Part shown: piece after piece, positions 18,430 to 64,000 of the stretch
Position numbering within the stretch: the first letter of the stretch is position 1
Layout: the number at the start of each line of letters is the position of its first letter
Source: a bacterium
Lineage (GTDB): Bacteria > Patescibacteriota > Minisyncoccia > Phycocordibacterales > UBA5272
NCBI GenBank assembly: GCA_023267535.1
Contig: JAHFNC010000003.1
Location: 380 to 64,379 of the forward strand
Length of the DNA: 64,000 bases
Direction: 5' to 3'
The notes under the pieces: model-generated
The model's input: the letters and a program-made list of their open reading frames with translations, nothing else
The model's database searches: none
Told to the model about the DNA's origin: nothing
Made by a program: the position numbers and the translations under genes

Positions 18430-18452
18430 GTGTTTAGTTTGTAGTTAATAAA

Positions 18453-20115: not shown

Positions 20116-20135
20116 TTAATAATCAAAAAAAATTA

Positions 20136-20226
20136 TTTCATCTACTTCGTTACGGAGCCTCTCTCACTCGTCAATGTAGCATCTAACTACATTTCCTCAC
20201 TCGTTTCTCCGTGCCTCGTATCTAAA
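20136..20226 (+). ncRNA. dispersed 3'-UTR element, copy C' (plus sense, directly after efp)
   Basis: Matches the element consensus in plus sense: UUCAUCUACUUCGUUACGGAG…GUCAAUGUAG-CAUCUAA-CUACAUU…CUCCGUGCCUCGUAUCUAA. It begins about 20 nt after the efp stop. Confidence 0.55.
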
Positions 20227-20293
20227 ACAATTTTTTGATTATTTTGTTTTGATTATTTTGTTTCGAGAATGTAAATTTAGTTTAAAATTATTT

Positions 20294-20403
20294 CAGATAC
20301 GCGAAGCAACGAATTTTTGGAAGAAGGCGTAGAAAACTACGACGACTGACGAAAATGAAGTTGCGACCTGTCTGCCGTCAGGCAGGCAAAGTAGATGAGA
20401 TGA
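20294..20403 (-). ncRNA. dispersed 3'-UTR element, copy C (directly after the stop of the 904-aa ATPase gene)
   Basis: Consensus match with an extra GC hairpin insertion. It is tail-to-tail with copy C'. Confidence 0.55.
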
Positions 20404-20410
20404 TTTTAAA

Positions 20411-24531: not shown

Positions 24532-24617
24532 TGCTTTATACTAACAAAAAAACTGATAAATTAAAACCAAGAAAAAACTCCCGCCGAGCGAGAGTTTTTT
24601 ATGTCATTTATATTATT

Positions 24618-27839: not shown

Positions 27840-27950
27840 AATGCGATAAATTATTTATAATATATACATTATATCCTTTTATTTAAGGAAAAATTTAAAG
27901 CTATCAACATAGCAAAAACACCCTTTTAGGGTGTTTTTGTTTATATTATT

Positions 27951-32438: not shown

Positions 32439-32716
32439 AGTGCAATTATTATTTATAATATCTACATTATATCCTTTTATTTATCTAAAATTTAAAGCTA
32501 TCAACATAGCAAAAACACCACGAAAGTGGTGTTTTTACAAATCTATACTTGGCTGTCCATTAAACAAAGATATTTAGCGAAATACGAGACACAGTATTAA
32601 GCCAAAAAATGTTTTAGATTTTAATTTTTGGAGAAACACGAGAAGAAGATGTATACAAAATACATTGACTGAGCGTGAGAGGCTCCAAAAAATTAAAAGA
32701 TGAGATATTTTTTGGC

Positions 32717-34513: not shown

Positions 34514-34541
34514 ATTGAAATAAAATTAAAAGAAAAGAAAA

Positions 34542-34564
34542 GAGCGACGCCGTAGGCGTCGCTC
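34542..34564. terminator. GCGACGCC-GTA-GGCGTCGC family terminator (downstream of the 1511-aa gene)
   Basis: aaaagagcgacgcc-gta-ggcgtcgctctttt, a perfect hairpin. Confidence 0.7.
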
Positions 34565-34583
34565 TTTTTATAATTATTTTTTA

Positions 34584-37500: not shown

Positions 37501-39119
37501 TGTTGTGTGGTAAATGTTTGTAATCCTTGATACATATAGGAACCACAAAATTGCCTTGCTGATTGGCACGATGTATTTGAACTATCAATCCAATATAAAT
37601 TACTACAACCTGTATTATTTTGTGGTGGCACACAAGAATTACCACTAACTGTGTAATTTGGTTGGCAAACAGTAAGAGTTTTAGTATCTGAAACTGGTGT
37701 TCCGCCGTTGTTATCACAGGTAACAGTGGTTGTTAATCCATCTGGAAAAGAAGCTGCCGAATATGTGTATGACGGGAAATTTAAACTGGCTGGATCCCAA
37801 ACTCCAGCTGAATTACTCACCTTGCAATGAGTAGCATTCGTAGAAGAATAAGCATACGAAGTATTTCCATCATGAGTAATTGTTGAAGGAGTGAAAGAAG
37901 ATGTGACGGTTGGTGTTTGTGTTGATGATGGACTTACACAACTTCCATTACTTATTGTTTGACCAGAAGCACAAACAGTTAATGTGTAAATTGGAGCGGA
38001 ATTCAAATCCGAAGAAGCTACACCAGCTGAATTGTAACAGATTAATTTCCTACTAAATCCTTGTGTGAGTGTTCCTAAAATACCATAAGGGAATGTATAA
38101 GCTGTATAAGTATTGTGAGTCCAATTTGAAAGTGGTTGATTTGTTGCAGTGTCAAACATAGTACAATTCTCCGCATTTATCGAAAAATAAGAAAACACTG
38201 GGCTTGACGCTCCATATGTAATTATTCCTGAATTTAATGTCCACGAAGCAGTTGGAGCTGACACTTGCGGTGCATGTTTAAATGTAACAGCCAGTGTCTT
38301 TGATGTGGTCTGCCCTGTTGGGCTAGTAACTGTATAAGTTACTGTGTTTGTACATCCATACTTAGCTGTTCCTGGAGTTGCTGTATCTGAGCCAGATGCT
38401 CCGCTACCATTACCTGTTACTGTCCAAGGTGCCCAGTTTGCTGTGGTGCCATTATTACCAGAAACATCACAATTTGTGAGAGTTGCTGAAATAACCCCTG
38501 TTGATCCGAGTGGTGTTGCGCTCCATGACCACACGCGAGAAGCTAGTGGGTCTACATTTGTTTGGTCAGTTGAAAAACCATTGAAAGTTAAAGTTGCGGT
38601 TGGAGGAGTAGCGACAGAACTTAAACAACTTTGTTGTGTAGTGAATGTTTGTAGCCCCTGATACATATATGAGCCACAAAATTGCCTTGCTGACTGACAC
38701 GATGTATTGGTATTGTCTGTCCAATATAAATTACTACAATTTGTGTTATTTTGTGGAGCGATACAAGAATTACCACTAACTGTGTAACTCGGTGGGCAAA
38801 CGGTTAAAGTTTTAGTGTCCGAAACAGGAGTTCCGTTGTTGTTGTCACAAGTGACAGTGGTTGTCAGTCCATTTGGAAATTGAGATGCTTGATATGTATA
38901 TGCTGGGAAATTTAAACTGGCTGGATCCCAAACTCCACCCGAATTAGATACCTTACAATGAGTTGCGTTTGTGGAAGAATATGTGTATGAGGTTGCTCCA
39001 TCAGATGTAATTGTTGATGGAGTGAAAGAAGATGTGACGGTTGGAGACACTTGAGCAAAAGAAATAAGTGGCGCAACAAAAAAAGTAGCAACTAAAATTG
39101 TAAGTTTTGATTTGGACAT
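34584..39119 (-). CDS. giant secreted surface protein (1511 aa): two ~375-aa duplicated modules, Fn3-like and carboxypeptidase-regulatory-like domains, C-terminal Cys-bounded PG_binding_1 domain
   Basis: Signal peptide; module TVTSSFTPSTIT…CKVSNSGGVWDPASLNFP…QFCGSYMYQGLQTFTTQQSC repeated at aa ~25 and ~400 with ~70 % identity. GKVIDENGNGLGGVTVTVYKAG…SGNWSF is CarbopepD_reg-like. C-terminal C…VLLLQKFLVQKGF…EAVKEYQ…C is PG-binding. Confidence 0.65.
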   Translation of the reverse strand: MSKSKLTILVATFFVAPLISFAQVSPTVTSSFTPSTITSDGATSYTYSSTNATHCKVSNSGGVWDPASLNFPAYTYQASQFPNGLTTTVTCDNNNGTPVSDTKTLTVCPPSYTVSGNSCIAPQNNTNCSNLYWTDNTNTSCQSARQFCGSYMYQGLQTFTTQQSCLSSVATPPTATLTFNGFSTDQTNVDPLASRVWSWSATPLGSTGVISATLTNCDVSGNNGTTANWAPWTVTGNGSGASGSDTATPGTAKYGCTNTVTYTVTSPTGQTTSKTLAVTFKHAPQVSAPTASWTLNSGIITYGASSPVFSYFSINAENCTMFDTATNQPLSNWTHNTYTAYTFPYGILGTLTQGFSRKLICYNSAGVASSDLNSAPIYTLTVCASGQTISNGSCVSPSSTQTPTVTSSFTPSTITHDGNTSYAYSSTNATHCKVSNSAGVWDPASLNFPSYTYSAASFPDGLTTTVTCDNNGGTPVSDTKTLTVCQPNYTVSGNSCVPPQNNTGCSNLYWIDSSNTSCQSARQFCGSYMYQGLQTFTTQQSCQNAVTPVAPSATLTFNSFSTNQTNVDPLVSRVWSWSATPTGSTGVLSSRLVCGSSDITTNWTPWITTGNTAMSGASGSDTAIPGTAKYGCTNTLTYVVTSPGGQTTSKTLAVTFKAAPQGTAPSASWSIPQATIAYNSPSAAVNYSSNGAVTCTLFNAGNNPATPLSYWTNSSNTSYSWATGAMGGQMASGYSRKLICYSANGTPSSDLASAPSYTLIVCNPGQTINNGVCSSSQSATAPGAPTITRVTRNDTATSLRDSATITFAVPLNNGGSPITSYNASCRNISTAANIADTQSATSQSSPIVVNNLISGYHYSCTLTATNAANLISYPSSIQATAGLNTSTPPPTTGIIDWTTWATTHPNIPVPYSGKVIDENGNGLGGVTVTVYKAGPTTFALDTSTDSSGNWSFTDGGFSRDFAWFHKKAGYETGLRMGLTASGTQATWTMKKLQPLTITPSSQNLPKEGGRTVIFTVNNDWENDITNNDLQICMASNATTCTNFYDYTTYTQAGNPYPFVFNQWGHTATVAYNSYATNVTSVVYSLRRKSDPTNVATAILNLVNGVYNWQSTQNSSPYGRDKTGPFATKSCASVVTTTPNEGDSCPVSMSGVTCALDLTSTTWKVFGCYLAGTVLDTSQVTAAPTPVVTAVLWNGTSYATGQDPLKPHSLQITSQNASAIDDSSNVVFSSNAGQNCSHAGTVNNWIPFGNSPSGTDSGAVNDASFYGCTVTSTVVVKNTYGVKSAPVTSTMVFINGPATGSSAVSTPTGSLSVTPTSCTVSVGYNTCNVTVAWNTTVNTAQVNYYTSGSDNTYGIVTSFYPDKNTLIGIRPGVYTFHLMNGSSELAGTQTVTAQCVTGSHFDTLSDKCKSNSQSSIPDTKPLVIGDYPPQVLGVEASCVDLTTNIHRGAESPKVLLLQKFLVQKGFLYDTPTGFYGDSTVEAVKEYQKSINLPETGMVYDFTRQAIKHDSCN

Positions 39120-39188
39120 AATAATATTGATTAGCTAATATAAGGCACAATTACCTTAATAGTATATAACAATTACAGTGATTTTATG

Positions 39189-39237
39189 GGGGGATAACAG
39201 AAAAAGCGACGCCTACGGCGTCGCTTTTTCTGTTATC
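39189..39237. terminator. 23-bp perfect inverted repeat containing the GCGACGCC-TAC-GGCGTCGC terminator core (downstream of rplO)
   Basis: gggataacagaaaaagcgacgcc-tac-ggcgtcgctttttctgttatccc. Confidence 0.7.
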
Positions 39238-39244
39238 CCAAAAA

Positions 39245-39811
39245 TTATTTTTTTGCTTTTGGTTTTGCACCACCTTTAGCTGATTTTTTTCCAGCTCTAG
39301 CGGTCTTTTTATCAGATGACTCTTTCGCTTGCTTATCAGCGTGTATTTCTGTCACTGTTTTATCGGCAATTACAATATTTCCTCCTGCCTTTTCAATTTT
39401 TTCTTTGGCAATTGAGGAAACAATACATCCTTCAATTGTTACGTTGACTGTAATTTCTCCAGTTCCTAGTATTTTTATCTTTGGAGTCTTACCGGCAACC
39501 AATTGAACCAATCCTTTTTGTATAAGAGTTGTCTTATTTACTATCTCCCCTGCGGAAAAGATATTTAGAGAAGAAACATTTACCACAGCTTCTGGCCCTC
39601 TATCAAATGCTGACTTGGCACGATTCTTTCCGTGACCTCGCAACTTTGGAAGCTTCTTAATAATGTCACGCATTGCTGGGCGTCTCTTATTTCCAGCTCT
39701 AGCTGTTTGTCCCTTTCCTCCACGACCAGCTGTTTTACCTCGCTTTCCTCCACGAGCAACTAGTTTCTTTTTTCTTTGTGGGTGAGCACGTCTTATTTCA
39801 TGAACTTGCAT
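39245..39811 (-). CDS. rplO: 50S ribosomal protein L15 (with a C-terminal extension)
   Basis: L15 N-terminal Gly/Arg-rich region; 188 aa against a typical ~145. Confidence 0.85.
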   Translation of the reverse strand: MQVHEIRRAHPQRKKKLVARGGKRGKTAGRGGKGQTARAGNKRRPAMRDIIKKLPKLRGHGKNRAKSAFDRGPEAVVNVSSLNIFSAGEIVNKTTLIQKGLVQLVAGKTPKIKILGTGEITVNVTIEGCIVSSIAKEKIEKAGGNIVIADKTVTEIHADKQAKESSDKKTARAGKKSAKGGAKPKAKK

Positions 39812-39816
39812 AAATT

Positions 39817-40503
39817 TTATTTATCTTCTTTATTAATTTCATCTTTTCCGACCTTTGTGGCTTGAACTGGAGCCTCACCATGAGTGTAAGCAATTTGTTC
39901 TAGCGCTTTCATTGTGGCACGAGCATTGTTTAGTTTATTCTTTGTTCCAGAAAAAAACTTTGCAGTAACATCGTGTAATCCAGCCAAGTTAAGAATGATA
40001 CGAGCTGATGATCCAGCAATAAGTCCTCTACCCTTATTTGGCATAATAAACACCTTTGATGATTTGAATTTCGCTTCAATATCATGAGGTAGAGAATTAT
40101 TTTTTGCCAATCTAAGATGAATCATATTCTTCTTAGCGGCCTTCATTGCTTTTTCAATAGCCACTTGAGTATCAAGTGCCTTACCAGTTCCAAGTCCGAT
40201 GCGACCATTTCTATCTCCGGCAACCAAGGCTACAGAAAGAGAAAATCTTCTACCTCCTGAGACCACACGAGTCACACGACGAATAGAAATAGTTTTGCTA
40301 TCAAACTCTGGCTTCTCACGAGCGAACTTTTTAAATCCACCCTTGCGACCACCAGCTCCACCTTTCCCTCCTCTATTTCCTCCGCTACCACGACCGAATC
40401 TAGGAGCTTTTTGTGCTGCTTCTTCAGCTACAGCAACATTTCCTACTACGATTTTTTCTTCTTTTACTTCTGCTTCCGCAGGTATTATTGTTTCTTCTGT
40501 CAT
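39817..40503 (-). CDS. rpsE: 30S ribosomal protein S5 (with an N-terminal Gly/Arg-rich extension)
   Basis: S5 dsRBD plus C-terminal domain. No rpmD between it and rplO. Confidence 0.9.
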   Translation of the reverse strand: MTEETIIPAEAEVKEEKIVVGNVAVAEEAAQKAPRFGRGSGGNRGGKGGAGGRKGGFKKFAREKPEFDSKTISIRRVTRVVSGGRRFSLSVALVAGDRNGRIGLGTGKALDTQVAIEKAMKAAKKNMIHLRLAKNNSLPHDIEAKFKSSKVFIMPNKGRGLIAGSSARIILNLAGLHDVTAKFFSGTKNKLNNARATMKALEQIAYTHGEAPVQATKVGKDEINKEDK

Positions 40504-40512
40504 ATATTTATA

Positions 40513-40863
40513 TTAGAAGTTAAGACCAGCTACGCGTGCTGCGTCTGCTAGTGCTTGAACTCGACCACGGTACGAGAACCCGCCACGATCAAAGACAATC
40601 GTAGTAATATTTTTTGCTTTTGCTTCCTTAGCAACAGCTGTTCCGACAATTTTAGCTCTCTCAAGCTTTGAAACTTTATCAGCTAAACTGATGTCAGACG
40701 CTGACGCTAAAGTGATTCCTTTTACATCGTCAATTATTTGCGCGTAGATATATCTGTTTGATCGGAAGACTGCTAATCTAGGGCGAGCCTCGGAGCCAGA
40801 AATTCTAGCTCTGATTTTTCTGTGAAGTCTCGCGCGCTTTTGTGTTTTAATATCTGTTTTCAT
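40513..40863 (-). CDS. rplR: 50S ribosomal protein L18
   Basis: L18 family (116 aa) in the canonical position. Confidence 0.9.
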   Translation of the reverse strand: MKTDIKTQKRARLHRKIRARISGSEARPRLAVFRSNRYIYAQIIDDVKGITLASASDISLADKVSKLERAKIVGTAVAKEAKAKNITTIVFDRGGFSYRGRVQALADAARVAGLNF

Positions 40864-40886
40864 ATATTTTCAATTAATTTATAAAG

Positions 40887-41420
40887 CTATGCTGACTTCT
40901 TACCCTGCTTACGACGAATAACTTCATTGCTGTAACGAATACCTTTACCCTTATATGGTTCTGGCTTCTTCAAAGCACGAACTTTATTTGCAAATAATCC
41001 GACCATTTCTTTATCAATACCAGATATTGTTAGACTTCCTTTCTCAGCAGTAACTGTTAGTCCTTGTGGAATAGCAATTATTACTGGATGAGAAAATCCA
41101 AGCGCCAACTGAAGATCACTTCCCTTAACTTCCCACTTGAAACCAACTCCTTCAACGAGAAGTTTCTTTTCAAAAGGGGTTACGACACCACTAACCATGT
41201 TATTTATGTGAGACATATATGTCCCCCACAAAGAACGAGAGAACTTATCATTTCTTCTTGGTTCAGAAGTTATGACACCATCTTCTTGCTTAAATACGAT
41301 TTCTTCGCGAATAGGTCTTATCAATTCCCCTTTCGGTCCCTTTACGCGTATAGCATGGGCATCGAAGACTACTTCAACACCTGACGGAATATTTATTTGT
41401 TGTTTTCCAATTCTGCTCAT
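40887..41420 (-). CDS. rplF: 50S ribosomal protein L6
   Basis: L6 two-domain protein (177 aa). Confidence 0.9.
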   Translation of the reverse strand: MSRIGKQQINIPSGVEVVFDAHAIRVKGPKGELIRPIREEIVFKQEDGVITSEPRRNDKFSRSLWGTYMSHINNMVSGVVTPFEKKLLVEGVGFKWEVKGSDLQLALGFSHPVIIAIPQGLTVTAEKGSLTISGIDKEMVGLFANKVRALKKPEPYKGKGIRYSNEVIRRKQGKKSA

Positions 41421-41435
41421 ACGATTTTTTATTAA

Positions 41436-41822
41436 TTACCAAATTTCGAATAATACTTCACCTCCGACCATCTCCTTACGAGCTTGTTTTTCATTTAGAA
41501 TTCCTTTTGGTGTTGATAGAACACAAATACCATGACCATACTTAACAGGATAAATATCTTTTACTCCAAGATAAATTCTCTTTGATGGTTTAGAAACTCT
41601 CTTCACTCCAGAGATACGAGGTGTTGTTTTGTTTTTATAAAGAAGGATTGCTTCGGCTTTCGCTTTCACACCCTCGGTTACATTAAAAGTCTTAATGTAA
41701 CCCTCATTTTTTAATAGCTCAAGAATTGCTATCTTCATTTTTGATGAAGGAAAAGAAACGCTCTCTTTGTTTACAAAGTTAGCATTCTTAATAGCAATAA
41801 GCATATTTGCAATAGGATCCAT
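41436..41822 (-). CDS. rpsH: 30S ribosomal protein S8
   Basis: S8 family (128 aa). Confidence 0.9.
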   Translation of the reverse strand: MDPIANMLIAIKNANFVNKESVSFPSSKMKIAILELLKNEGYIKTFNVTEGVKAKAEAILLYKNKTTPRISGVKRVSKPSKRIYLGVKDIYPVKYGHGICVLSTPKGILNEKQARKEMVGGEVLFEIW

Positions 41823-41841
41823 AATTATTTAATGTTTATTA

Positions 41842-42027
41842 TTACCACGAAGCCTTTTTAATACCAGGAATCATACCTTCGTTAGCGAGCTCACGAAAGC
41901 ATGTTCTGCAAAGACCAAAATCGCGCATGAACCCGCGCTTTCGACCACATTTAAAGCAACGGTTAACTGTTCTTGTGCTAAACTTTGGCGTTTTTTTACT
42001 ACGGGCGATTACTGATGTTTTTGCCAT
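41842..42027 (-). CDS. rpsN: 30S ribosomal protein S14 type Z (zinc-binding, 61 aa)
   Basis: CxxC…CxxC zinc-ribbon S14 (CFKCGRK…CRTCFRE). Confidence 0.9.
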
Positions 42028-42227
42028 TGTCTAATTTATTTAATTGATAAATCTACCTTCAATATCTCGTTTATTTTCTTAAAAATGTTGAATTCTTAAG
42101 GAGACAAGCGGATTAAAAGATAGTTTTTAAATACTAACACGAAATGGAGATAGTTTCAAGTAAGAGCAAGTAAGTAAAAGGGCGGATAAGCTTCGCTTAT
42201 CCGCCCTTTCTATTTATATCCAACCCC

Positions 42228-45200
42228 CTACCCTTCAAACAAATTAGAAATATTTATCTTTATTGTCTTTGTTCTAAAGTCAGGGGCTCCCGTACAATAG
42301 AGTTTAAATATCGCTCCATGATTTAATATGAATGATTTTTTACCCAAAGCGTGAGTCTGACCATTTGGCGGAGTAACTAGTGCGGTTGTAATCTTTCTTG
42401 AACCGTATTGATCATTGGTGTCAGTGTTCATGTTAGCTATTCCAAAATTAATTGCATTTATTTCAGCAATTTGATCAGCGGTTGGAGATGAAGACGGAGA
42501 AGAGGCTATCATAGTACAACCAGCTATTGGATCTTGTATATCCCAAGAAACAGTTACGCTGTCTCCAGACTGAATACTTGTTGGTGAAGCAATTAAATTT
42601 ATGAGAGATGCACAATTATTTTCAACCCAAACTTGAGTGTTATCCCAACAAGTTTTTCTTGGATGAATATATGTTGCTTGACAACTGGTACTATTTCCAC
42701 CATTTAGTCCACCGCAAGACCATGTCCATCCATTTGATGCTCCATCTGTTGGATTGTTCAATGTTACATAGGACGGTGTGGTTCCTTTATCACACTGTGA
42801 GGTTATGTCGGTTGCGTACGTATAAGAACCTCCGGAGGAACTACCACAAGCCCCGTCTTGTTCTGAAATTACAGTTATAAGAGTGCTGTCTGTCCAACGA
42901 CAAGTACCGTTTTGATTGTGATCATTATCGCAAGCAGAGAATTTAACTCTATATGTTCCTAATTGTGTCGGAATAAAACTTGCGTTCATATTTTTATTTC
43001 CTGTAAAAGTAAAGTTTGCATTATTTGTATAATTATATGTCCACGAACCATCTGGATTTTGAACATCAAAATGAAGTTCAGTCATATCGGCGTTACTGTC
43101 TGATGCCGTAGATGAGAAGCTTATTGATTGACCGATTTGATGTGATACTTGGTTTGTATTTGGCACAATACTAACAGTTGGCACTAAATCAAAATATGTC
43201 GCCGAACAAGATACAGGCGCTCCTTGTCCAAGGCATTGCCATGACCATGGACCAAATGTTGGACCACCAGGTGGATTTGAACTTGGTGTCGTGTATTGAG
43301 AGCAGAGATTTACTTGAGGAGCAGATGGGAATGAACCTCCGCCAGATAATCCACAAGCAATATTTTGAGTAGCATTACACATACTTGAATTTACAGCTCC
43401 AATAGAACAATACCAACTCCACGCTCCAGTCGCAGATGGTGTTGAATATGCATTACAAAGATTTGTGGTTGGTGGTTGATCATAACTTGTTCCATTTGCT
43501 GACCCACAACCTGGAGCTCTACACGCTACCCCATCCCACACTGAGCCAGCTGTACACGACGCAGAAACAGATGTCGACATATGAACGAAAGATCCGTTTT
43601 TAATTGTGAAGGAATCCCCTCCGTACTTAACCGTGACGGGTTGGTTGGTTCCGTTGGCGGAAGTATAGAGACTAGCGCCTGCACCATTTACAATGTTTGG
43701 TGACGAGAAATGAACTGAAGACCAGTCAAGATAAACAGTACAAGAACTAGCATTAACAGATATCAAGCAAGAACCCTGTCTTGCAGAAATATTTCCTGAA
43801 GCCACGTAAACTGGCGTACTAGCAGATGTTCCTGAGCAAGTAATAGTGTATGTTGTATCTGATAACGGTGTCACGGATACTGAGCTAGCTATGTTTGCAG
43901 TGACAGCACCGACTCCGTTTATGCTACAAGATGAAGTTTGTGATGATGAATATGAAAGTAGAGATGATTGACTGTAGTTTATGGTAGAAGGATTGGCCGA
44001 TATTGAAGACGCAGAATTAGCTGCAAAAGATGCGGTGATTGTATGTCCCCACATTACGTTACCACTATCACTAAATGTTGGAAATGTGTAGTTTGATATA
44101 GCTCCTTGCTCTACATAATCAACCTGCACAGATGTAGTGTGGTATCCGCCACTTGGTGAAATACTAAATGCTTGAGTTGCCGAACTATCAACAAGTCTGT
44201 TTCCTAATGGAGAAATTGAACCACCTCCGCCTGCTGAAGAAGTTAAATGATAAGAACCATAAAACTTATTACCGTTCCATTTACAGAAAATCCAAGAATT
44301 CGGATTACTATTTTGATTAAGCGTACAACTCGCTGTTGCGTCAGCTAAAGATACGGTTGAAGTCATTGACCCCCCTCCTTCAATATACATAGTATATGTC
44401 CCAAGTGCTGGCGCTTGGAAAATAGTATTTCCGTTCCATGTACACATAATTGAATGGGTTGGATTATTGTTGTAATTTAATTGGCAGTTTGCTAATGCTT
44501 CTGGCAGAGTATAATGATTACCGGCAAGGTCAATATTAGAAGAAATAAAAGGTGATCCGCTTCCATCAAAATATCCTCTGTAATCTCCGAGCGCTGGAGC
44601 TGAATAAATCTGAGTTCCGTTCCATGTACACATAATAGCGTGAGTTGGATTATTGTTGCGGTTAAGTTGGCAGTTTGATAATGCGGCCGCTTGAGTAATA
44701 TTAGGTGTCTGTATAAACCATGAACCATCAAAATACCCTATATATGTCCCCAGTGGGTCAGAACAAACTCCACCACTCACTACTTGTCCAGAAGGACAGA
44801 CGGTTACTGTTACATATTGCCAACCACTACTAAGATTTGCTGTTGAATTACTACATCCGAAGGCATATTGTGTACTAGAGATTAGGCTTGGTGTAGTGTA
44901 AGTGAACGTAGTATTTATTGGTTCGTTTGCATTTATTCCAGACAAGTTACAGCTGGTGGCACCTGATGAGGTCATAGTGAGTACAGCTGTTGAATTATAT
45001 GTAATGGGGTTCGGCGAAGCAGATATGGTTGCTTTAATACAGGTTGGGAAATTCCCCGCCCCACTTGCCCCATTTGAACAAGTAGCATTAGTTGAGCAAC
45101 TAGCTGTTGACCCTCCATTTGTTCCAGGACAACTCCAAGTGTAACCATATGTTGGACCATTACCTGTGGGACCAGCAAGATTGGTGAAAGTAGACACACT

Positions 45201-47387
45201 CTGTGTGTCAGCCACACAGAGACCTTGAAGTTTTGGACTTGACCAACTTGCATAATTATTTTGATCTCTAGTGACATTGTCCCAAGTTGAATTGGCACAT
45301 AGTCCGTTCACGGGAGGACTGGTAACCGTAATAGTTTGTGTATTGGATTGAGTTCCAAACCATTTGACACCTTCTTGAACCATTTTCCAGTTAAATGAAT
45401 ATGTCCCAGGAGAATTAGGAGCCCTCATTTGTGTTTGTGCTCCTGAAAGAGTGAGAGATTGGCCTGGGCCGACACTACTTGGTAAATAAACTCTATTTAT
45501 TCCAAAATAAGTAAGATCATCTTGAGGAGTCCAGATACCGACTTTATATCCAGCCCCTGGGGACCAAGTTGTCACACCTGTATTATTTATGGTAATTGTC
45601 GGGGAAAATACCTGACCAACAGTAAGCGATGAAGGGAATGAAATAGTTACATTTCCATCGTCTGACACAACAGTATAAGGAATATAGAGCCATTGAGTAG
45701 CGACATTAGATCCAAGACCAATATGAGCTTGAAAAGCTATGGAATATGACCCAGGAGAATTTGGCGCTGTAAAATTAACGTTCGGTCCAGTCCACAATCG
45801 ACTTGGGTCTGGGTCGTAAAATCCACACGGAGTCCAACCGGCCCACTCTGGAGACAAAAGACAGGTATCTCCGCTACCATTAACATTACCTGTAACAACT
45901 AAGTTACCACCAGTACCAGTATAATTTTGAATATTGCCAGCTACTGTTACTGTCTCCCCTGGAGCATAAACAAATGGCGACGCTTTATTTACCACCCAAA
46001 CATTAGCATAAACGGGACCAGGTAAATAAAAGGTGTCGGCTTTAACTTTATTTGTACTTAAACTAAATAAAACAAAGAGAATAATTATTGATATAAAAGG
46101 AAATTTCTTTTTATATTTCAAATGAAGGAGGACTATTGATCCTACAAAAATAAAAGTGATGATGGCATACCAGTACCAAAAAATACCCGTAGTCTTTTTC
46201 GGGGAAAGATTAGAAGAGGATGTTATTGTAAAATCTCTAGAGTCCAAAACACCGTATTTAGAATCTAAAAATTTAACATTTATTTGCGGGTTAACACAAT
46301 CATTAGTGACAGTAAAAGGTATTTGTTCAAAATAGTTAACGGAGTCTAACGTTTTCGTAAATTGAGAAACACAACTATTTCCATTCTTATCCTTAATTGT
46401 TATTGAGACAGAAGCGTTGTTAAGTTTTGTTCCACTTGCCTTTCGTAGATTAGAAAATAAATCAATTGATGGTAGCCATAAAATAGAAAGTTTTGCTTTG
46501 TCTCCTGCACCATATACATCTTTATCTAAAGTAACATTCTGTATGGTTGCACTGGCCCCACGCAATACATAATTAAAATTAACAGTGTTCGTATTTTTCA
46601 AATCTCCAGTATTTTTAAAAATTAAAGACACCGTATAAGCTTGTGGGTTGGTTGCTTTTGGTAAATCTATATCTACTACCCTCTTTTCTTTGGAGGACAA
46701 AACTATTTGCGATTCACTGCTTTGATTTGTATTAATTGTATTACCGTAAACTCCATGCGCTTTTGTAATAAACTCTGGGATTAAAGTTATGTTATTTGAT
46801 GTTTTATTTTCAATCGTACAGTGAGCAACCAAACTTTCGGTGGACGCAATGTCTACACCTCGACTGGTGACATAGTGTGGTTGGTCTTTTTCATCTTTAA
46901 CAGTTAAATAACAACTAGTCGGATCAACATATGCAAAATATTCTACTTTTGATTTTAAATTTAATTTACCTATAACCCCTCTACCAAAAGAAAACCCATT
47001 ACTATTTCCAGCCGAAAGCCACAAGTTATATGTGCCAGATAATTCGGAAGGGGCTGTATAAGTTATTGTTTTATGAAGAGACGCATTTTCTCCTAAGTTT
47101 ATAGATTCTCCATAAACCTGTTCATCAACTATTGTGGATGTACCTTTTTTATCCTGAGTTAAGATCACTCCGTATTTTACATCTGGTTGAATACCGACTC
47201 GATTAGAAATATCAAAAGATATTTTTACAATGTTATCCTGCTGTGTAAAAGTGGCGTTGGCTACATTAACTGTAGCTACAACTATTGCATTACTAGCTGG
47301 AGTACTTGTTCCTTGAGCGAAAGCAAAAGAAGGGAAAAGTAAAAACCACACAGAAGAGATCAGAAGCCTTTTGAAAAATAAAAACAT
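42228..47387 (-). CDS. giant surface protein (1719 aa) with an internal membrane hairpin, tandem 55-aa repeats and a C-terminal module shared with the adjacent 948-aa protein
   Basis: Signal peptide and a ~390-aa domain, then …SPKKTTG-IFWYWYAIITFIFVGSIVLL-HLKYKKK-FPFISIIILFVLFSLS-TNKVKA…, followed by ~1270 aa with the W..PG.Y.F.W.M.QE.V.WFG domain, three GYFDGS…NCQLN.NNNPTH.IMCTWNG repeats, and C-terminal …KKSFILNHGAIFKLYC…IKINISNLFEG. Confidence 0.6.
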   Translation of the reverse strand: MFLFFKRLLISSVWFLLFPSFAFAQGTSTPASNAIVVATVNVANATFTQQDNIVKISFDISNRVGIQPDVKYGVILTQDKKGTSTIVDEQVYGESINLGENASLHKTITYTAPSELSGTYNLWLSAGNSNGFSFGRGVIGKLNLKSKVEYFAYVDPTSCYLTVKDEKDQPHYVTSRGVDIASTESLVAHCTIENKTSNNITLIPEFITKAHGVYGNTINTNQSSESQIVLSSKEKRVVDIDLPKATNPQAYTVSLIFKNTGDLKNTNTVNFNYVLRGASATIQNVTLDKDVYGAGDKAKLSILWLPSIDLFSNLRKASGTKLNNASVSITIKDKNGNSCVSQFTKTLDSVNYFEQIPFTVTNDCVNPQINVKFLDSKYGVLDSRDFTITSSSNLSPKKTTGIFWYWYAIITFIFVGSIVLLHLKYKKKFPFISIIILFVLFSLSTNKVKADTFYLPGPVYANVWVVNKASPFVYAPGETVTVAGNIQNYTGTGGNLVVTGNVNGSGDTCLLSPEWAGWTPCGFYDPDPSRLWTGPNVNFTAPNSPGSYSIAFQAHIGLGSNVATQWLYIPYTVVSDDGNVTISFPSSLTVGQVFSPTITINNTGVTTWSPGAGYKVGIWTPQDDLTYFGINRVYLPSSVGPGQSLTLSGAQTQMRAPNSPGTYSFNWKMVQEGVKWFGTQSNTQTITVTSPPVNGLCANSTWDNVTRDQNNYASWSSPKLQGLCVADTQSVSTFTNLAGPTGNGPTYGYTWSCPGTNGGSTASCSTNATCSNGASGAGNFPTCIKATISASPNPITYNSTAVLTMTSSGATSCNLSGINANEPINTTFTYTTPSLISSTQYAFGCSNSTANLSSGWQYVTVTVCPSGQVVSGGVCSDPLGTYIGYFDGSWFIQTPNITQAAALSNCQLNRNNNPTHAIMCTWNGTQIYSAPALGDYRGYFDGSGSPFISSNIDLAGNHYTLPEALANCQLNYNNNPTHSIMCTWNGNTIFQAPALGTYTMYIEGGGSMTSTVSLADATASCTLNQNSNPNSWIFCKWNGNKFYGSYHLTSSAGGGGSISPLGNRLVDSSATQAFSISPSGGYHTTSVQVDYVEQGAISNYTFPTFSDSGNVMWGHTITASFAANSASSISANPSTINYSQSSLLSYSSSQTSSCSINGVGAVTANIASSVSVTPLSDTTYTITCSGTSASTPVYVASGNISARQGSCLISVNASSCTVYLDWSSVHFSSPNIVNGAGASLYTSANGTNQPVTVKYGGDSFTIKNGSFVHMSTSVSASCTAGSVWDGVACRAPGCGSANGTSYDQPPTTNLCNAYSTPSATGAWSWYCSIGAVNSSMCNATQNIACGLSGGGSFPSAPQVNLCSQYTTPSSNPPGGPTFGPWSWQCLGQGAPVSCSATYFDLVPTVSIVPNTNQVSHQIGQSISFSSTASDSNADMTELHFDVQNPDGSWTYNYTNNANFTFTGNKNMNASFIPTQLGTYRVKFSACDNDHNQNGTCRWTDSTLITVISEQDGACGSSSGGSYTYATDITSQCDKGTTPSYVTLNNPTDGASNGWTWSCGGLNGGNSTSCQATYIHPRKTCWDNTQVWVENNCASLINLIASPTSIQSGDSVTVSWDIQDPIAGCTMIASSPSSSPTADQIAEINAINFGIANMNTDTNDQYGSRKITTALVTPPNGQTHALGKKSFILNHGAIFKLYCTGAPDFRTKTIKINISNLFEG

Positions 47388-47460
47388 ATTACTTAAGTAA
47401 CAGTATATCTTACAACACCACTATTGCGGAATATTTATACACAAAACTAAACCCCCGCAC

Positions 47461-50307
47461 CTACCCCTCAAACACATTAGCAATATTTATTCTAATCTTT
47501 CTTCCTTGAGAAGAGTTACTACAATGTAAGTCAAATACAGTTGAGTGATTTAAATTAAATGATTTCTTACCTGTTGCTGTCCCACCTGATGGTGTAGTGA
47601 TTGCTTTATTTATCCCAACAGTGGTGCTGTTGTCTATGGTTTCTGTATTAATTTTTTGATTTATTTGAGCTATCTCAGCTATTTGAGCAGATGTTGGATT
47701 AGGGAAAGGAGACGATGCCGATAGTCCACAAGTATTATTTGTTCCTTCTATTATCCAAGAAAGTGTTGTGCTTTGGCCTTGGTCTATGGTTTGCGGTGTA
47801 GCGGTTAGACTAGTTATATGAGGGGGACAAGATTGTGTAACCCTAACACTTGATTGGTCCCAACAAGTTTTAAACTCTGGAGGGCAGCTACTAGTTACAG
47901 GTATTTCGTCACCATTCCAACAGGTTTGAGTATCAATAGTACAACTGCCACCATTTGGATGATTGAAACTTGGACAAGAACAAGACGGATAAAAAGCTAT
48001 ATCTAATCCATTTGGACAAGATGGTATAACATGTGGAATTACTACAGGAGTATTATCTACAGGAACTGGACAAGATTGAGATAAAGGAATAACGCTTCCA
48101 TCAGAGCAGGTCTGAGTTGTTAGAGGAATTATACAAATTGGCTGTGATCCAGAATATCCAGAAGGACAAGGACATCCAGAGGTAGATGGAGCAATTGTAC
48201 ATATAGCAAGGTTGATAATACTGACGCATTTACCCGAGATTGCATTCCAGATAGAGCCAAAGGTACATGTTGGAGTAATTGTTACTTGGTCTAATAGAAC
48301 TGCATTGTTATATAAATAGTAAGTAGTGTTTGAATAAGTTCCAGATACTGAAGCGCTTTGTGGTCCACTATTATTTCCAGTAAATACAGTTCCAGATGGA
48401 TTATTTCTTGTTATGGCAGACGTTCCTACTGGATTAGTTGTACTCCAACTTAAATTAACATTACAAGATGATTGGTCGGTATCTATAGTACAAGACTGTG
48501 AAGAAGAAGTGATTGTGCCAGAGAGAGGGTTAGTTGCTGGTGTCACTGGATTAACATTCGGGTTTGTACATACCCCATTAACCACCGTTTGATCTTGAGC
48601 ACAAACATTTACTGTTAGATATTGCCAACCAGTACTGGTACTATTATTTGTATTACTACACCCAAAAGCATATTGCTGACTTGAAGTTAGGTTACCGGTG
48701 GATTTAGTTACTTTCTGATTCGGAGTTATGTTTGGGTCTATGCCAGAAAGATTACAGCTTGTTGCTCCTAATGAGTCTAGCGTGAGGGTGGCGGACGAAC
48801 CATTTTCAATTGGAGTTTTGTCCACTGTAATCGTAGCAGAAATAGAAGTCGGAACGCAACTAGACCCACTTGGGACTTTGCCAAGTGAACAAGTACAAGA
48901 TGGATAAGTAGCTATATCTAATCCGTTAGCACAACCACAACTCATATTACTAGGTCCGACCCAACTGTTGCCAATCTGGCATTTGAAAGATACTGAGCCA
49001 GTATAGTTCGGAGCAAGAGTTTGGTCGTTTGTAGTAGTTTGTGTTTGACCAACTGGTATGTTAGATAAATTAACTGAAGCTTTGCAAGGACCTGCTGAAG
49101 AATTTCCTGTAAAGGTTGAACTTGTCCACGAATTAGTCCCATTAGCCGAGCAGGTGCCAGGGTTCCCCTGCACACTAACACTATCCAAAACATTTCCACC
49201 ACTATCTTTGAGAGTAAAGATAGTTGGTGTTTGAGAAATCCAAGGAGCAGTTTGAGGACCTTTTACAGCGTTAGCAAATAGAGCATTGTTAGGTGATATG
49301 GTTACCGTAGCACTTGGCGTATCAGAAGTATCCCAACTTATTACTGAAGAACAGTTAACTTGAGAACCTGTCATATTACAAGGATTTGGGGATGCTGAAA
49401 TGTGTCCAGTTGGCTTAGCGACAACTACTGGAGTTACAGTAATACTTTGCGCACATGTATCACCAAACCACTCAACATTCTCTTGTAGCATTCTCCAAGA
49501 GAATGAATAAGTTCCTGGTGTAGACGGAGCCGTGAGAGAAGGAGCAAATATAGCCGAGGAGCCTGGTGAAACTGAATTAGTTAACGACCAAGGAACCCTA
49601 CCTAATCCCCAAGTATTATTATTTTCTGGATTCTGACTACCAAGTGAATACGCACCCTGTGTCCAATCTGTAGTTCCATCATTAGTCATAACAATTGAAG
49701 GCTGAAAAGTCTGTCCAGCTACAATAGAAAATGGTGCTGAGATACTATGACAAGAAGCAATATTTACTTTAGCCATTTCTACACAAGTGATAGTTCCCCA
49801 AACTACAGAAGCGTTATCTTGCCCAGCCCTTGGGTAATACATCTCTTGCATAAAAGTTCCGGCAGGGCAGGTTATAAGAACATCATTCCAAGTGTAATAA
49901 TTCTGAACAGCGGTTGCAGAAACAGGGTTGGCAGTTTTAGCACCGTAACAAGTAGCGCTGTTATTCTGAGCTCCTTGATTATCCCACCAAGCTCTTGGGA
50001 AATATACCCCCGACATAATTCCCGAAGGACAATTATATCCGTACGAAGCTCCTTCCGAATTACCAGCACTTACCCCAGTAACAGTAGCCGGAGCACAAGT
50101 CCCTGACACATCCATTGTGTCTTGGTTATCTAACCCTCCACGAGGAAAATATATGCTTGTCATAAAAGTTCCAGCCGGACAATCAAAACTAGGACCCGAG
50201 GCCTTCACTTTTACTCCCCCACTAAAAAAACTAATCAAAACAAAGAATATTAACAGAAGTGATTTTGATATATTTAGCAGAGAAAAAATTTTATTTTTAG
50301 AAATCAT
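47461..50307 (-). CDS. giant secreted protein (948 aa) with three N-terminal Cys-bounded ~40-aa repeats and a paralogous C-terminal module (…IRINIANVFEG)
   Basis: CPAGTFM…YFPRGGLDNQ…C repeated three times. The middle and C-terminal domains align to the 1719-aa protein (ATSCNLSGI…QYAFGCSN…GWQY.TV.VC; NSPGTYSFSWRMLQENVEWFG). Confidence 0.6.
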   Translation of the reverse strand: MISKNKIFSLLNISKSLLLIFFVLISFFSGGVKVKASGPSFDCPAGTFMTSIYFPRGGLDNQDTMDVSGTCAPATVTGVSAGNSEGASYGYNCPSGIMSGVYFPRAWWDNQGAQNNSATCYGAKTANPVSATAVQNYYTWNDVLITCPAGTFMQEMYYPRAGQDNASVVWGTITCVEMAKVNIASCHSISAPFSIVAGQTFQPSIVMTNDGTTDWTQGAYSLGSQNPENNNTWGLGRVPWSLTNSVSPGSSAIFAPSLTAPSTPGTYSFSWRMLQENVEWFGDTCAQSITVTPVVVAKPTGHISASPNPCNMTGSQVNCSSVISWDTSDTPSATVTISPNNALFANAVKGPQTAPWISQTPTIFTLKDSGGNVLDSVSVQGNPGTCSANGTNSWTSSTFTGNSSAGPCKASVNLSNIPVGQTQTTTNDQTLAPNYTGSVSFKCQIGNSWVGPSNMSCGCANGLDIATYPSCTCSLGKVPSGSSCVPTSISATITVDKTPIENGSSATLTLDSLGATSCNLSGIDPNITPNQKVTKSTGNLTSSQQYAFGCSNTNNSTSTGWQYLTVNVCAQDQTVVNGVCTNPNVNPVTPATNPLSGTITSSSQSCTIDTDQSSCNVNLSWSTTNPVGTSAITRNNPSGTVFTGNNSGPQSASVSGTYSNTTYYLYNNAVLLDQVTITPTCTFGSIWNAISGKCVSIINLAICTIAPSTSGCPCPSGYSGSQPICIIPLTTQTCSDGSVIPLSQSCPVPVDNTPVVIPHVIPSCPNGLDIAFYPSCSCPSFNHPNGGSCTIDTQTCWNGDEIPVTSSCPPEFKTCWDQSSVRVTQSCPPHITSLTATPQTIDQGQSTTLSWIIEGTNNTCGLSASSPFPNPTSAQIAEIAQINQKINTETIDNSTTVGINKAITTPSGGTATGKKSFNLNHSTVFDLHCSNSSQGRKIRINIANVFEG

Positions 50308-50901: not shown

Positions 50902-50984
50902 ATTTTTATGTTATTCACTAATAATTGTAGCTGTGTACAGTGTAACAAATATAGAAAATCTTTTATCCACTTGTGTGGACAACA

Positions 50985-51018
50985 AAAACGCGACGCCGTA
51001 GGCGTCGCGTTTTTGTTT
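50985..51018. terminator. GCGACGCC-GTA-GGCGTCGC family terminator (downstream of the 493-aa gene)
   Basis: acaaaaacgcgacgcc-gta-ggcgtcgcgtttttgt. Confidence 0.7.
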
Positions 51019-51033
51019 TATTCTAAAAAATAT

Positions 51034-52587: not shown

Positions 52588-52618
52588 AAGAAAACTCGCC
52601 TTTTAGGCGAGTTTTCTT
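52588..52618. terminator. intrinsic terminator (gaaaactcgcc-tttta-ggcgagttttc)
   Basis: Perfect hairpin between element copy D and the 493-aa gene. Confidence 0.6.
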
Positions 52619-52627
52619 TCATTAAAA

Positions 52628-52736
52628 AGCTAGAATTTGCTTTAGATGCGAGGCACAGAAAATTTTTGCGACCAAGGCGTACATATAGTACGACGCGTGG
52701 AGGAAAAATTTTCTGTAACAAAGTAGATGAAGTAAA
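52628..52736 (-). ncRNA. dispersed 3'-UTR element, copy D (starts right after the rplE stop)
   Basis: RNA sense: UAA-UUUACUUCAUCUACUUUGUUA-CAGAAAAUUUUU-CCUCCACGCGUCGUAC-UAUAU-GUACGCC…AAAAAUUUUCUG-UGCCUCGCAUCUAA. The outer helix CAGAAAAUUUUU/AAAAAUUUUCUG is perfect. Confidence 0.6.
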
Positions 52737-53282
52737 TTATAGTTTTTTAAACGGGACACCGATTATAGAGAGGAATTTAGTTGCCTCTTCTTTCGATTTA
52801 GCTGTAGTTCCAATTGTTATCGCCATTCCGAAAATATCTTTCAAATCTTCATCGTGAATTTCTGGGAAAATAGTTTGCTCTTTGATTCCAAAAGTTATGT
52901 TACCGATGTTATCAACTGAAGTTCTATTTATTCCTCGGAAGTCTTTGGTTCTAGGAAGTGACACATTGAAAAGTTTATCTAAGAAACCAAACATTCTTTT
53001 TCCGCGAAGAGTAACCGCAACTCCAATCTGGTCTCCTTGTCTTGTTTTAAATGAAGCCACTGATTTCTTAGCTTTTCTAAGTGTTGGCTTTTGACCTGTT
53101 ATTTTAGCAAGTCTATCTACCACAAGTTCATTTCTCTTTCTGTCTTTTTTAATTGCTGAACCTGTAGCAACAGATACTGTTACTTTCACTAGCTTTGGCG
53201 CTGCCATCACATTTTTATAACCAAATTCTTTTGACAATGTTTCAAAAGAAAGTTTTTCTAATTCTTGTACTGTTTTTTTCAT
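52737..53282 (-). CDS. rplE: 50S ribosomal protein L5
   Basis: L5 family (181 aa). Confidence 0.9.
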   Translation of the reverse strand: MKKTVQELEKLSFETLSKEFGYKNVMAAPKLVKVTVSVATGSAIKKDRKRNELVVDRLAKITGQKPTLRKAKKSVASFKTRQGDQIGVAVTLRGKRMFGFLDKLFNVSLPRTKDFRGINRTSVDNIGNITFGIKEQTIFPEIHDEDLKDIFGMAITIGTTAKSKEEATKFLSIIGVPFKKL

Positions 53283-54035: not shown

Positions 54036-54063
54036 CTAAACAAAATCTAGCACAAAACAAATT

Positions 54064-54098
54064 AAAAAGCGACGACCGGAGGTCGTCGCTTTTTAATT
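54064..54098. terminator. terminator hairpin (aaaaagcgacgacc-ggag-gtcgtcgcttttt)
   Basis: A variant of the GCGAC…GTCGC family, lying between element copy E and the 199-aa gene. Confidence 0.65.
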
Positions 54099-54119
54099 AT
54101 TACTTTTCCTAATTTTCAA

Positions 54120-54229
54120 AAAGTCAGAAAAGGTTTTAGATGCGCGAAGCATAAAAATTTTATGAGAGAGATGTAGTAGACCTACATTGACCGAATAAAA
54201 TTTTGTAGCGACAAAGCAGATGAAACTTT
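54120..54229 (-). ncRNA. dispersed 3'-UTR element, copy E (starts right after the rplX stop)
   Basis: RNA sense: …UUCAUCUGCUUUGUCGCUA-CAAAAUUUUAU-UCGGUCAAUGUAG-GUCU-ACUACAU…AUAAAAUUUUUAUG-CUUCGCGCAUCUAA. Confidence 0.6.
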
Positions 54230-54457
54230 TTATGACTTTTTGTCGGCAAGCTTTACGTTAGAAACATCAATAGGCATAGCCTTATCAATAATTCCACCCT
54301 TATCTCCCTGCTTCTTTGGTTTGATGTGGCGCTTCATTGTATTTAATCCTTCCAAAATAACTTTGTTTCTTGTTGGAATAGCGCGCGCAACAACAGAAGT
54401 CTTTCCCTTCTCCTTTCCAGCAATCACTATTACTTTGTCTCCTTTTTTTATTTTCAT
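54230..54457 (-). CDS. rplX: 50S ribosomal protein L24
   Basis: KOW-motif protein (75 aa) in the canonical position. Confidence 0.85.
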   Translation of the reverse strand: MKIKKGDKVIVIAGKEKGKTSVVARAIPTRNKVILEGLNTMKRHIKPKKQGDKGGIIDKAMPIDVSNVKLADKKS

Positions 54458-63226: not shown

Positions 63227-63282
63227 AGTTTTGTATTTATTAGCTTATATCCTAAGTCTAGCACTAATTAGAGATAACAAAA

Positions 63283-63310
63283 GCGACGCCGTAGGCGTCG
63301 CTTTTGTGTT
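63283..63310. terminator. GCGACGCC-GTA-GGCGTCGC family terminator (after fusA and its 3'-element)
   Basis: acaaaagcgacgcc-gta-ggcgtcgcttttgt. Confidence 0.7.
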
Positions 63311-63361
63311 AAAAAAATATTTTCAGGATTCAGAATAGGAAAGAAATTATTTCTTGTTTAT

Positions 63362-63475
63362 AAAAAATAAAATTTTCGATGAAATACGAGGAGCCTAGAA
63401 TTTTTTGGAGAGAAATGTAGAAGACCTACATTGACCGACAAAAAATTCGTAGCGACAAAGTAGTTCGCGAAAATT
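63362..63475 (-). ncRNA. dispersed 3'-UTR element, copy F (starts right after the fusA stop)
   Basis: RNA sense: UAA-AAAUAAAAUUUUCGCGAACUACUUUGUCGCUA-CGAAUUUUUUG-UCGGUCAAUGUAG-GUCUU-CUACAUU…CAAAAAAUUCU-AGGCUCCUCGUAUUUCAUCG. Confidence 0.6.
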
Positions 63476-64000
63476 TTATTTTTTATTCTCGGCGATATCC
63501 TTGGCAATGTTCTGTGGAACCACATCATACTTTCCAAATTCCATTGTAAATGATGCACGTCCCTCTGTCATTGAACGCAAATTATTTACATAACCAAACA
63601 TTTCTGACAATGGAACCATTGCTCTCACAACTTTATCCATTCCTCTTTCGTCCATGCCTTCTATTTGTCCACGCTTTGATGATAGGTTTCCAGTAATATC
63701 TCCGTAGAACTTATCCGGTGTAACAACTTCCACTTTCATTATTGGTTCTAGAATAACCGGCTTCGCTTTTCCAACGGCATCAGAGAGTGCCATACCCGCA
63801 GCAATCTTGAAAGCGATTTCAGATGAGTCCACTTCGTGGAAAGATCCGTCATAAACTTCACAAGAAACATCAACCATCTTAAATCCAGCAAGAGTTCCGC
63901 GATCCATTGCTTCTCGCAATCCTTTTTCTACAGCAGGAACATATTCTTGTGGAATAACTCCACCTTTTATTGAGTTTACGAATTCAAAACCATTGTAACG
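63476..64000 (-). CDS. fusA: elongation factor G (C-terminal part; the gene continues beyond the window end)
   Basis: EF-G domains IV/V (…[32 protein letters not shown]…). The reading frame stays open to position 64000. Confidence 0.9.

Follow-up and report, generated by a model that had tools for sequence, protein, structure and literature searches.

Eight copies of a hairpin-forming element are present in a 64,000-nucleotide stretch of a Patescibacteriota contig (hereafter, the window), seven of them directly after protein-coding genes and one inside a 23S rRNA gene. The element is ~125–135 bp in length and consists of a conserved asymmetric core enclosed by a terminal inverted repeat, designated P0. 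It is probably, with a likelihood of roughly 55%, a non-autonomous mobile palindromic DNA element of a REP/REPIN- or MITE-like kind that is carried in 3' UTRs. This interpretation draws on the terminal repeats, on similar copies found in unrelated surroundings, on orthologous sites at which some genomes carry the element and others do not, and on the observation that the strand present in the transcript is the poorer folder of the two.

Copies of the Element in the Window

A covariance model was trained on the seven copies listed in an earlier, sequence-only reading of the window, which had counted eight in all, had placed them next to stop codons and had assigned one to the interior of the 23S rRNA gene. 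The model recovers its seven training copies at 82–118 bits, all at or near the positions first given, and adds a degenerate copy after secY, absent from that list, that scores 50.9 bits (c8; Table 1). A pattern of the two conserved motifs (CATCTRCTTYG ... CGYRTCTRA) gives five matches in the window, with none expected by chance. According to Pfam, the genes upstream of the copies are rplJ, efp, a gene for a TraG/VirD4-like ATPase, rplE, rplX, fusA and secY, the first six as had been proposed. The element runs in the same sense as the upstream gene or, for c1, as the 23S rRNA in 8/8 copies, and the sole copy on the plus strand follows efp, itself a plus-strand gene. The stop codon lies 9–25 nt ahead of TCATCT in the four pattern-matching copies that have an upstream ORF; the other three ORF-following copies show this spacing on direct inspection of their sequence.

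Table 1. Copies of the element (c1–c8) and terminator hairpins in the window, with their setting and the corresponding covariance-model hit.
Feature	Position	Strand	Setting	Model hit
c1	3041–3162	−	in 23S rRNA gene, rRNA sense	3045–3162 (−)
c2	8929–9053	−	rplJ-rplL spacer; rplJ stop 9046–9044 within P0	8932–9048 (−)
c3	20119–20244	+	after efp; sole plus-strand copy	20124–20241 (+)
c4	20273–20418	−	after TraG/VirD4-like ATPase gene; stop 20413–20411 within P0	20277–20412 (−)
c5	52622–52750	−	after rplE; core 52642–52730; P0 19–20 bp per end; rplE stop 52739–52737 within 5' arm	52626–52744 (−), 116 bits
c6	54117–54242	−	after rplX; stop 54232–54230 within P0; terminator 54060–54098 downstream	54120–54237 (−)
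c7	63360–63485	−	after fusA; stop 63478–63476 within P0; terminator hairpin 63274–63314 downstream	63364–63481 (−)
c8	32593–32724	−	after secY; stop 32719–32717 within P0	32598–32717 (−), 50.9 bits
Terminator after c5	52588–52618	−	canonical GC-rich intrinsic, few bases downstream of c5	
Repeat-family terminator hairpin	5804–5844			
Repeat-family terminator hairpin	18447–18487			
Repeat-family terminator hairpin	34535–34575			
Repeat-family terminator hairpin	39197–39237			
Repeat-family terminator hairpin	50981–51021			
Repeat-family terminator hairpin	63274–63314		downstream of c7	

Individual copies differ in their surroundings and state of preservation. The rRNA copy, c1, forms part of a 283-nt insertion (about 2892–3172) at the tip of 23S helix 63, which also holds two further hairpins and which bears out the assignment of one copy to the 23S gene. 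That gene (1418–5431, −) measures 4014 nt against a model of 2925 positions, so about 1.1 kb of it consists of insertions. Copies c3 and c4 are arranged tail-to-tail, and the core of c4 holds an extra 20-nt hairpin (CCTGCCTGACGGCAGACAGG) at 20336–20355, between the CTTTG and GTCGC motifs, with the remaining fold intact. The 904-aa ATPase gene (20411–23125, −), which has c3 and c4 at its flank, gives weak matches to TraG/VirD4/TrwB coupling proteins; an FtsK/SpoIIIE translocase gene (14665–16959, +) and recA are found near it. The core motifs of c7 have diverged. Copy c8 has lost the asymmetric core motifs and has arms of perfect complementarity in their place, which indicates that arm-to-arm homogenisation does occur.

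Canonical terminators are located downstream of four of the eight copies (c5, c6, c7 and c8), the earlier reading having stated that one usually follows; c2, which has no terminator downstream, lies inside the rplJ-rplL unit. The position of the terminator after c5 places this copy within the rplE 3' UTR. The idea that the element is itself an intrinsic terminator was rejected because separate canonical terminators follow c5–c8 and because of the location of c2 within its unit. A second, shorter repeat family in the window is made up of six near-identical GC-rich bidirectional terminator hairpins of the form AAAAGCGACGCC-NNNN-GGCGTCGCTTTT (Table 1).

A large part of the window (23157–63919, −) carries an S10-spc-secY string that is interrupted by non-ribosomal genes, mostly encoding very large PG_binding_1-domain proteins. 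The interrupting genes are placed after fusA, rplX, rplE, rplO and secY, and several of the junctions have their own terminators. Direct repeats of up to 300 nt, 77–98% identical, occur within and between giant ORFs (1073, 1495, 1511 and 1719 aa) at 24607–32446 and 36808–48615, which indicates that these encode repeated-domain surface proteins.

Architecture and Covariation of the Hairpin

On the sense strand, the core reads TCATCTRCTTYGTYRC, followed by variable stems surrounding an apical ACGTAC-loop-GTACGT hairpin, and ends in GCGCCTCGYATCTAA. Every copy folds as a single long, rod-like hairpin. The conserved ends, which had been described as single-stranded, instead face each other, TAC/GTA (or TGC/GCA) forming a covarying 3-bp helix beside two fixed mismatches. 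Outside these end motifs, the flanks contribute the additional stem P0, which had been missed in the earlier reading and is 17–19 bp in length (interquartile range; median 18.5 bp) and overlaps the stop codon. Among 113 elements, flank complementarity is 0.82–0.97 from position −1 to −17, with the exception of −3, −4, −9, −13 and −14, falls to 0.62–0.66 at −18/−19 and to 40% at −20, and lies at a background of 0.23–0.30 beyond −20.

In the 122 copies fitted to the model, 84% of the cells expected to pair do so, compared to 59% in shuffles and 33–42% in slid controls, and the covariation score is 0.548 vs. 0.147 in shuffles. The hairpin is therefore real and maintained, and the compensatory helix changes noted earlier are upheld. 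Covariation by itself cannot separate an RNA from a single-stranded DNA, nor either of these from arm-to-arm templated repair. Taken as inverted copies of one another, the two conserved arms are degenerate at best. Stem mismatches occur at rates of 0.10, 0.14 and 0.11 at the codon positions; third positions are not enriched, and drift of the coding arm alone was rejected on this basis. The defining features of a K-turn, a tRNA-like structure, a SECIS element, a Cas12a repeat, a dif/Xer site and an anti-Shine-Dalgarno sequence were missing on inspection by eye.

Distribution Among Genomes

A stringent pattern scan of species-representative genomes yielded 109 loci with 110 matches, all of which have the same architecture. 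The hosts belong to at least six phyla and include Patescibacteria (Paceibacterota, Saccharibacteria, Nomura-, Kaiser-, Yonath- and Gracilibacteria), Bdellovibrionota, Omnitrophota, delta-proteobacteria (Smithella, Syntrophaceae), Binatia, Bacillota and Bacteroidota. The covariance model adds further copies at these 8-kb loci, some of them arranged as tandem or tail-to-tail pairs. As the genomes are mostly MAGs, the number of copies in each is approximate. Judging by the names given to its nearest L5 homologues, the window itself comes from a Paceibacterota/Parcubacteria-type bacterium. A second subfamily, found in Bdellovibrionota, delta-proteobacteria, Omnitrophota and one Bacillota genome, has its whole P0 stem conserved as GGnCTGTTGAAAA... 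and element-borne. The stem of this subfamily resembles a published palindrome that flanks the CGTC-1 REP dimers of Halothiobacillus neapolitanus (GGGaaGCTT-GAAAaACC ... GGTaTTTCgAAGC-gCCC; PMC3733652), and the two families may be related.

Viral contigs gave 17 pattern matches, none of which was confirmed by the covariance model, so these are taken to be chance matches. BLAST searches of plasmid and phage collections with two elements found nothing similar. In the window and 18 element-bearing loci, Rfam 15 at gathering score identifies only 23S, 5S, tRNA and RNase P, in line with the earlier remark that the element was not recognised as a known family; around c5, matches obtained in E-value mode are centred on the neighbouring terminator and all fall far below gathering. 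A literature search by conserved strings and keywords, covering part of the journals, returned general REP and MITE papers only and no description of the element. The family is widespread and apparently uncatalogued.

Position and Orientation Relative to Genes

The end of a same-strand ORF of at least 60 codons lies within −80 to +15 of TCATCT in 98/114 pattern-matched elements, with the abutting stops clustered at −25 to −4, compared to 35/114 in an opposite-strand control, where the ends are broadly spread. Likewise, 100 of the 125 covariance-model hits outside the window abut a same-strand ORF end; the other 25/125 are without an abutting sense ORF of this length. The abutting genes include those for SSB, GyrB, RpoC, SecY, YchF, MreB, S7, AlaRS, and MutS- and UvrA-like proteins. 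Copies typically sit 0–14 nt past the stop codon of such housekeeping genes and ahead of the canonical terminator where one is present; in those cases the element therefore belongs to the 3' UTR of the upstream gene and is co-transcribed with it. The stop codon is wholly contained in the stem in 49/98 cases. On the far side, 64 elements have a same-strand neighbour and 43 a convergent one, and an all-against-all BLAST of the neighbours revealed no recurrent far-side gene or cassette.

Not all copies follow an ORF. A second rRNA copy, from another genome (L026:4787–4905), lies inside a 23S gene, in sense, within a stretch that has no rRNA match, its assignment to helix 63 being extrapolated from an incomplete alignment, and one Bdellovibrionales copy is found 38 nt past tRNA-Met, also in sense. 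A stop codon is thus not required. About 80–90% of the elements share one orientation relative to the upstream gene. The orientation with the transcript, which had been called strict, holds for the window copies and is a strong bias elsewhere, but it is not strict, at least one copy (L093:760–876) being reversed relative to its abutting gene.

Filled and Empty Sites

Thirteen copies in one Bdellovibrionales MAG share a mean identity of 89%, compared to 55% in the 40 nt beyond the stem on each side, which are unrelated. Related genomes differ in whether the element is present at the orthologous site of several genes (mreB, ychF, rplE, ssb, rplJ and rpsG); for example, the rplJ-rplL spacer is empty in L067 and the rplE site in L127. 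Where a relative's L5 protein is identical, its genes around rplE are also arranged as in the window. In L127, whose L5 is 88% identical, other foreign genes occupy the rplX and rplE junctions and no element is present. Its empty sites after these two genes (3400–3430 and 6540–6575) have 6-bp inverted repeats over the stop codon with a 10-nt loop (AACTAA...TTAGTT and AAAAGG...CCTTTT); these may mark a target or a footprint, or may have arisen by chance, the DNA being AT-rich. A pre-existing empty hairpin target with an ATCTAA loop was rejected, as it is absent from about 900 kb of loci. After alaS, L066 has a 5' remnant (TAAAATTGTTCATCT, about 5562–5600, +) followed by unrelated sequence at the position where L074 has a full element; the remnant is possibly a deletion or an excision footprint.

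No transposase, reverse transcriptase or integrase gene was found among the scanned ORFs of the 64-kb window, and the copies there are therefore non-autonomous. No autonomous parent element was detected by pattern scans, which could not span a transposase-sized gap. Different species keep the element at orthologous sites (ychF in four genomes, ssb in three), where the inner stems carry paired changes, and this retention could reflect host-level selection on the structure. Why copies should be so closely tied to stop codons is difficult to account for in terms of DNA alone.

An Inverted Copy of the Gene End

Genes with a filled site keep their native C-termini and stop codons, and their natural ends lie within P0, as seen for SSB (..DDIPF), GyrB, SecY, YchF and MreB. 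An element-like consensus, TAAAATNANT, occupies positions −10 to −1, whereas farther out the stem consists of native sequence, which is coding where the stop codon is at −10, −9 or −5. The outer half of the gene-side arm being native, that of the other arm must be an inverted copy of it, about 8–9 nt in length. It is the Patescibacteria-type copies that show this inverted gene end in the P0 arm distal to the gene, and the distance from the core to the end of the stem is always 17–19 bp. In c5, the 3' arm retains an AAG codon as found in L127, at a position where rplE of the window now has AAA. Duplication of the target in inverted rather than direct form is, to our knowledge, not an outcome of standard transposition, and for this reason the mechanism of insertion proposed below is a conjecture.

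Folding of the Two Strands

The strand opposite the mRNA is the more stable one in 117/118 elements with RNA parameters (mean −54.8 vs. −39.2 kcal/mol for the sense strand) and in 112/118 with DNA parameters. Still, the sense RNA folds well, with a mean of −39 kcal/mol and a z-score of about −5. Among sense-strand mismatches, A.C exceeds G.U both in the core (246 vs. 74) and in P0 (117 vs. 59). Conserved positions of the complementary strand pair as U.G, tandem G.A and G.U, and three variable pair positions alternate between G-C, A-U and G.U on this strand only. The asymmetry between the strands thus stems largely from conserved positions, which could be conserved for reasons besides pairing. 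In the freely varying stems, a hand tally gave about 108 G.U vs. 144 A.C, which is near parity. Such parity is not typical of RNA helices under selection; it matches DNA palindromes.

The most economical explanation of these patterns is selection of the structure on one strand of the DNA while the element is being mobilised, with arm-to-arm repair in addition, the sense RNA hairpin being a by-product. The sequence-only reading had argued for an RNA-level function and against a DNA transposon. The evidence does not support this inference, as it includes terminal inverted repeats of 17–19 bp, the 13 similar copies with unrelated flanks, filled and empty sites, and the poorer folding of the sense strand with its excess of A.C mismatches.

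Origin of the Element and Alternative Explanations

If the element is a mobile DNA palindrome, as favoured here, its conserved core would be the recognition site of a putative mobilising enzyme whose substrate is a folded single strand. Of the two DNA strands, the one complementary to the mRNA is the most likely substrate, being by far the better folder. The fixed-length stem would be made at or soon after insertion, and we infer that this involves either fold-back (self-primed and self-templated) synthesis whose extent is set by a bound protein or template switching that corrects the palindrome. The orientation bias could be explained by the survival of insertions that place the weaker-folding strand in the transcript, with selection against the very stable strand in mRNA, where a near-perfect stem of 20–25 bp would extend over the stop codon. 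In mRNA and rRNA, the element would be a passenger hairpin, for which incidental protection of the 3' end or trimming by RNase III is possible. More tentatively, the element may represent a new class of bacterial mobile element, which a putative, widely distributed enzyme (perhaps HUH-type) that binds the core would move in the form of a folded single strand, with insertion at the 3' ends of transcription units and a fold-back, inverted target-site duplication; we consider this doubtful at present, and we know of no description of an inverted target-site duplication with a fixed-length stem for prokaryotic transposons.

A cis-acting, sense-strand RNA module of 3' UTRs, serving as a stability, processing or termination-coupled signal, would account for several of the same observations, although we regard it as unlikely. 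Its basal stem would sequester the stop codon, it would have spread by its benefit to the host, and selection at the RNA level would keep its structure. Such a module would be expected to show the strong sense bias and the stop-codon adjacency seen across phyla, yet the element also occurs in an rRNA loop and after a tRNA, where there is no stop codon, and in one instance is reversed. The location between stop codon and terminator, which ensures co-transcription, and the stability of the sense RNA are as predicted, but this strand is the poorer folder in nearly every element, its A.C mismatches outnumber G.U in the core, and the two are about equal in the variable stems. Compensatory changes at orthologous sites and the inclusion of the entire stop codon in half of the stems fit a module that close relatives nevertheless do without at the same genes, and c8 has kept the hairpin while losing the conserved motifs. 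Precedent exists in REPs near stop codons and in ERIC and Correia sequences, which affect mRNA fate (PMC3733652, PMC10969869).

Two further explanations are weaker than that of an RNA module. The better-folding strand could be transcribed as a small RNA from the strand opposite the upstream gene, folding into a rod of high stability that contains tandem G.A pairs and has variable ends of about 20 nt, which act in an antisense or guide-like manner against the 3' end of the neighbouring mRNA. The mean stability of this strand (−55 kcal/mol), its conserved G.U and tandem G.A pairs and the match of its variable 17–19 nt ends to the end of the neighbouring gene agree with such an RNA. It is nonetheless improbable, as the 70 nt upstream of the stem on this strand show no positional conservation of the kind a conserved promoter would leave, the terminator of c5 ends a few bases ahead of the stem and leaves no room for an antisense promoter, no protein gene is recurrently associated, and DNA energy parameters yield the same asymmetry. 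Less probable still is a recombination or attachment site similar to integron attC and used as a folded single strand, which would explain the foreign genes located right after c5, c6, c7 and c8 in the ribosomal protein/secY operon. The element follows ORFs and overlaps their stops, folds best on the bottom strand, conserves structure above sequence and, at c5–c8, is each time succeeded by non-ribosomal genes, all of which would fit such a site; but the RYYYAAC/GTTRRRY boxes are absent from the consensus, no integrase or recombinase was found among the scanned ORFs of the window, no second element follows the inserted genes, and L127 has other foreign genes at the same junctions with no element.

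Implications

If the favoured reading is true, one hairpin element is common to the small-genome bacteria of the candidate phyla radiation and to several unrelated phyla, and it decorates the 3' ends of essential genes, including those for ribosomal proteins, EF-G, SecY, SSB, GyrB, RpoC and 23S rRNA. REPs, for which the means of mobilisation and the function remain under debate, would have in it a counterpart that crosses phyla, and it would be a testable case of inverted, fixed-length target duplication. The element would also provide a marker for the annotation of 3' UTRs and explain part of the unexplained rRNA insertions in carrier lineages. More generally, covariation and transcript-sense orientation alone are no proof of an RNA-level function.

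Comparison With Known Systems

REPs and REPINs are repetitive extragenic palindromes and inverted doublets that are mobilised by RAYT HUH transposases. The element resembles them in that it consists of multi-copy extragenic palindromes forming hairpins of ~100 nt, which lie mainly downstream of ORFs (98/114 and 100/125 in the two data sets), in spacers of unidirectional or convergent gene pairs, are co-transcribed with the upstream gene and in some cases overlap or provide its stop codon. Surveys of REPs have likewise found them downstream of ORFs and supplying stop codons, with some dimers contained in larger palindromes without an empty target (PMC3733652). The element differs from REPs and REPINs in having no terminal GTAG or CGTC tag on a 20–40-nt unit, GYAG and CGTC being internal only and the unit being a single ~125-nt hairpin; in the conservation of its core over at least six phyla, REPs being lineage-specific; and in its fixed stem of 17–19 bp with an inverted copy of the native flank. 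No gene for a RAYT or Y1 HUH transposase was found among the scanned ORFs of the 64-kb window.

Similarities also exist to transcribed bacterial MITEs such as the Correia elements of Neisseria, ERIC of Yersinia and bcr1 of Bacillus cereus, which are about 100–150 bp in length, have terminal inverted repeats and no coding capacity, occupy transcribed intergenic locations and fold into RNA hairpins. Transcribed Correia and ERIC sequences are subject to effects of RNase III or RNase E, with RNase III cutting at the terminal inverted repeats, and influence mRNAs in an orientation-dependent manner (PMC10969869). These sequences produce short, direct duplications of the target and do not extend beyond a single genus or family, whereas the element has an inverted flank copy, hugs stop codons and crosses phyla. 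As in classical DDE-type MITEs, terminal inverted repeats are present (the 17–19 bp of P0); however, the flank copy is inverted and not direct, and inspection by eye of the flanks listed for Bdellovibrionales copies showed no direct target-site duplication.

The rRNA copies are reminiscent of the intervening sequences (IVS) of 23S rRNA, in that c1 and the L026 copy are extended hairpins that replace the tip of a 23S helix, the helix position being extrapolated for L026. Classical IVS sites are in helices 25 and 45, whereas c1 is located in helix 63 and the element is mostly found in mRNA 3' UTRs. The attC sites of integrons are imperfect palindromes of 57–141 nt that are located directly after an ORF, often over its stop codon. 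They function in the form of their folded bottom strand, in which unpaired bases are conserved and the stems vary. The element has other core sequences, neither a cassette array nor an attI site, and neighbours that are housekeeping genes, rRNA and tRNA. It is set apart from REP, MITE and attC sequences alike by its cross-phylum core and its fixed-length, inverted copy of the flank.
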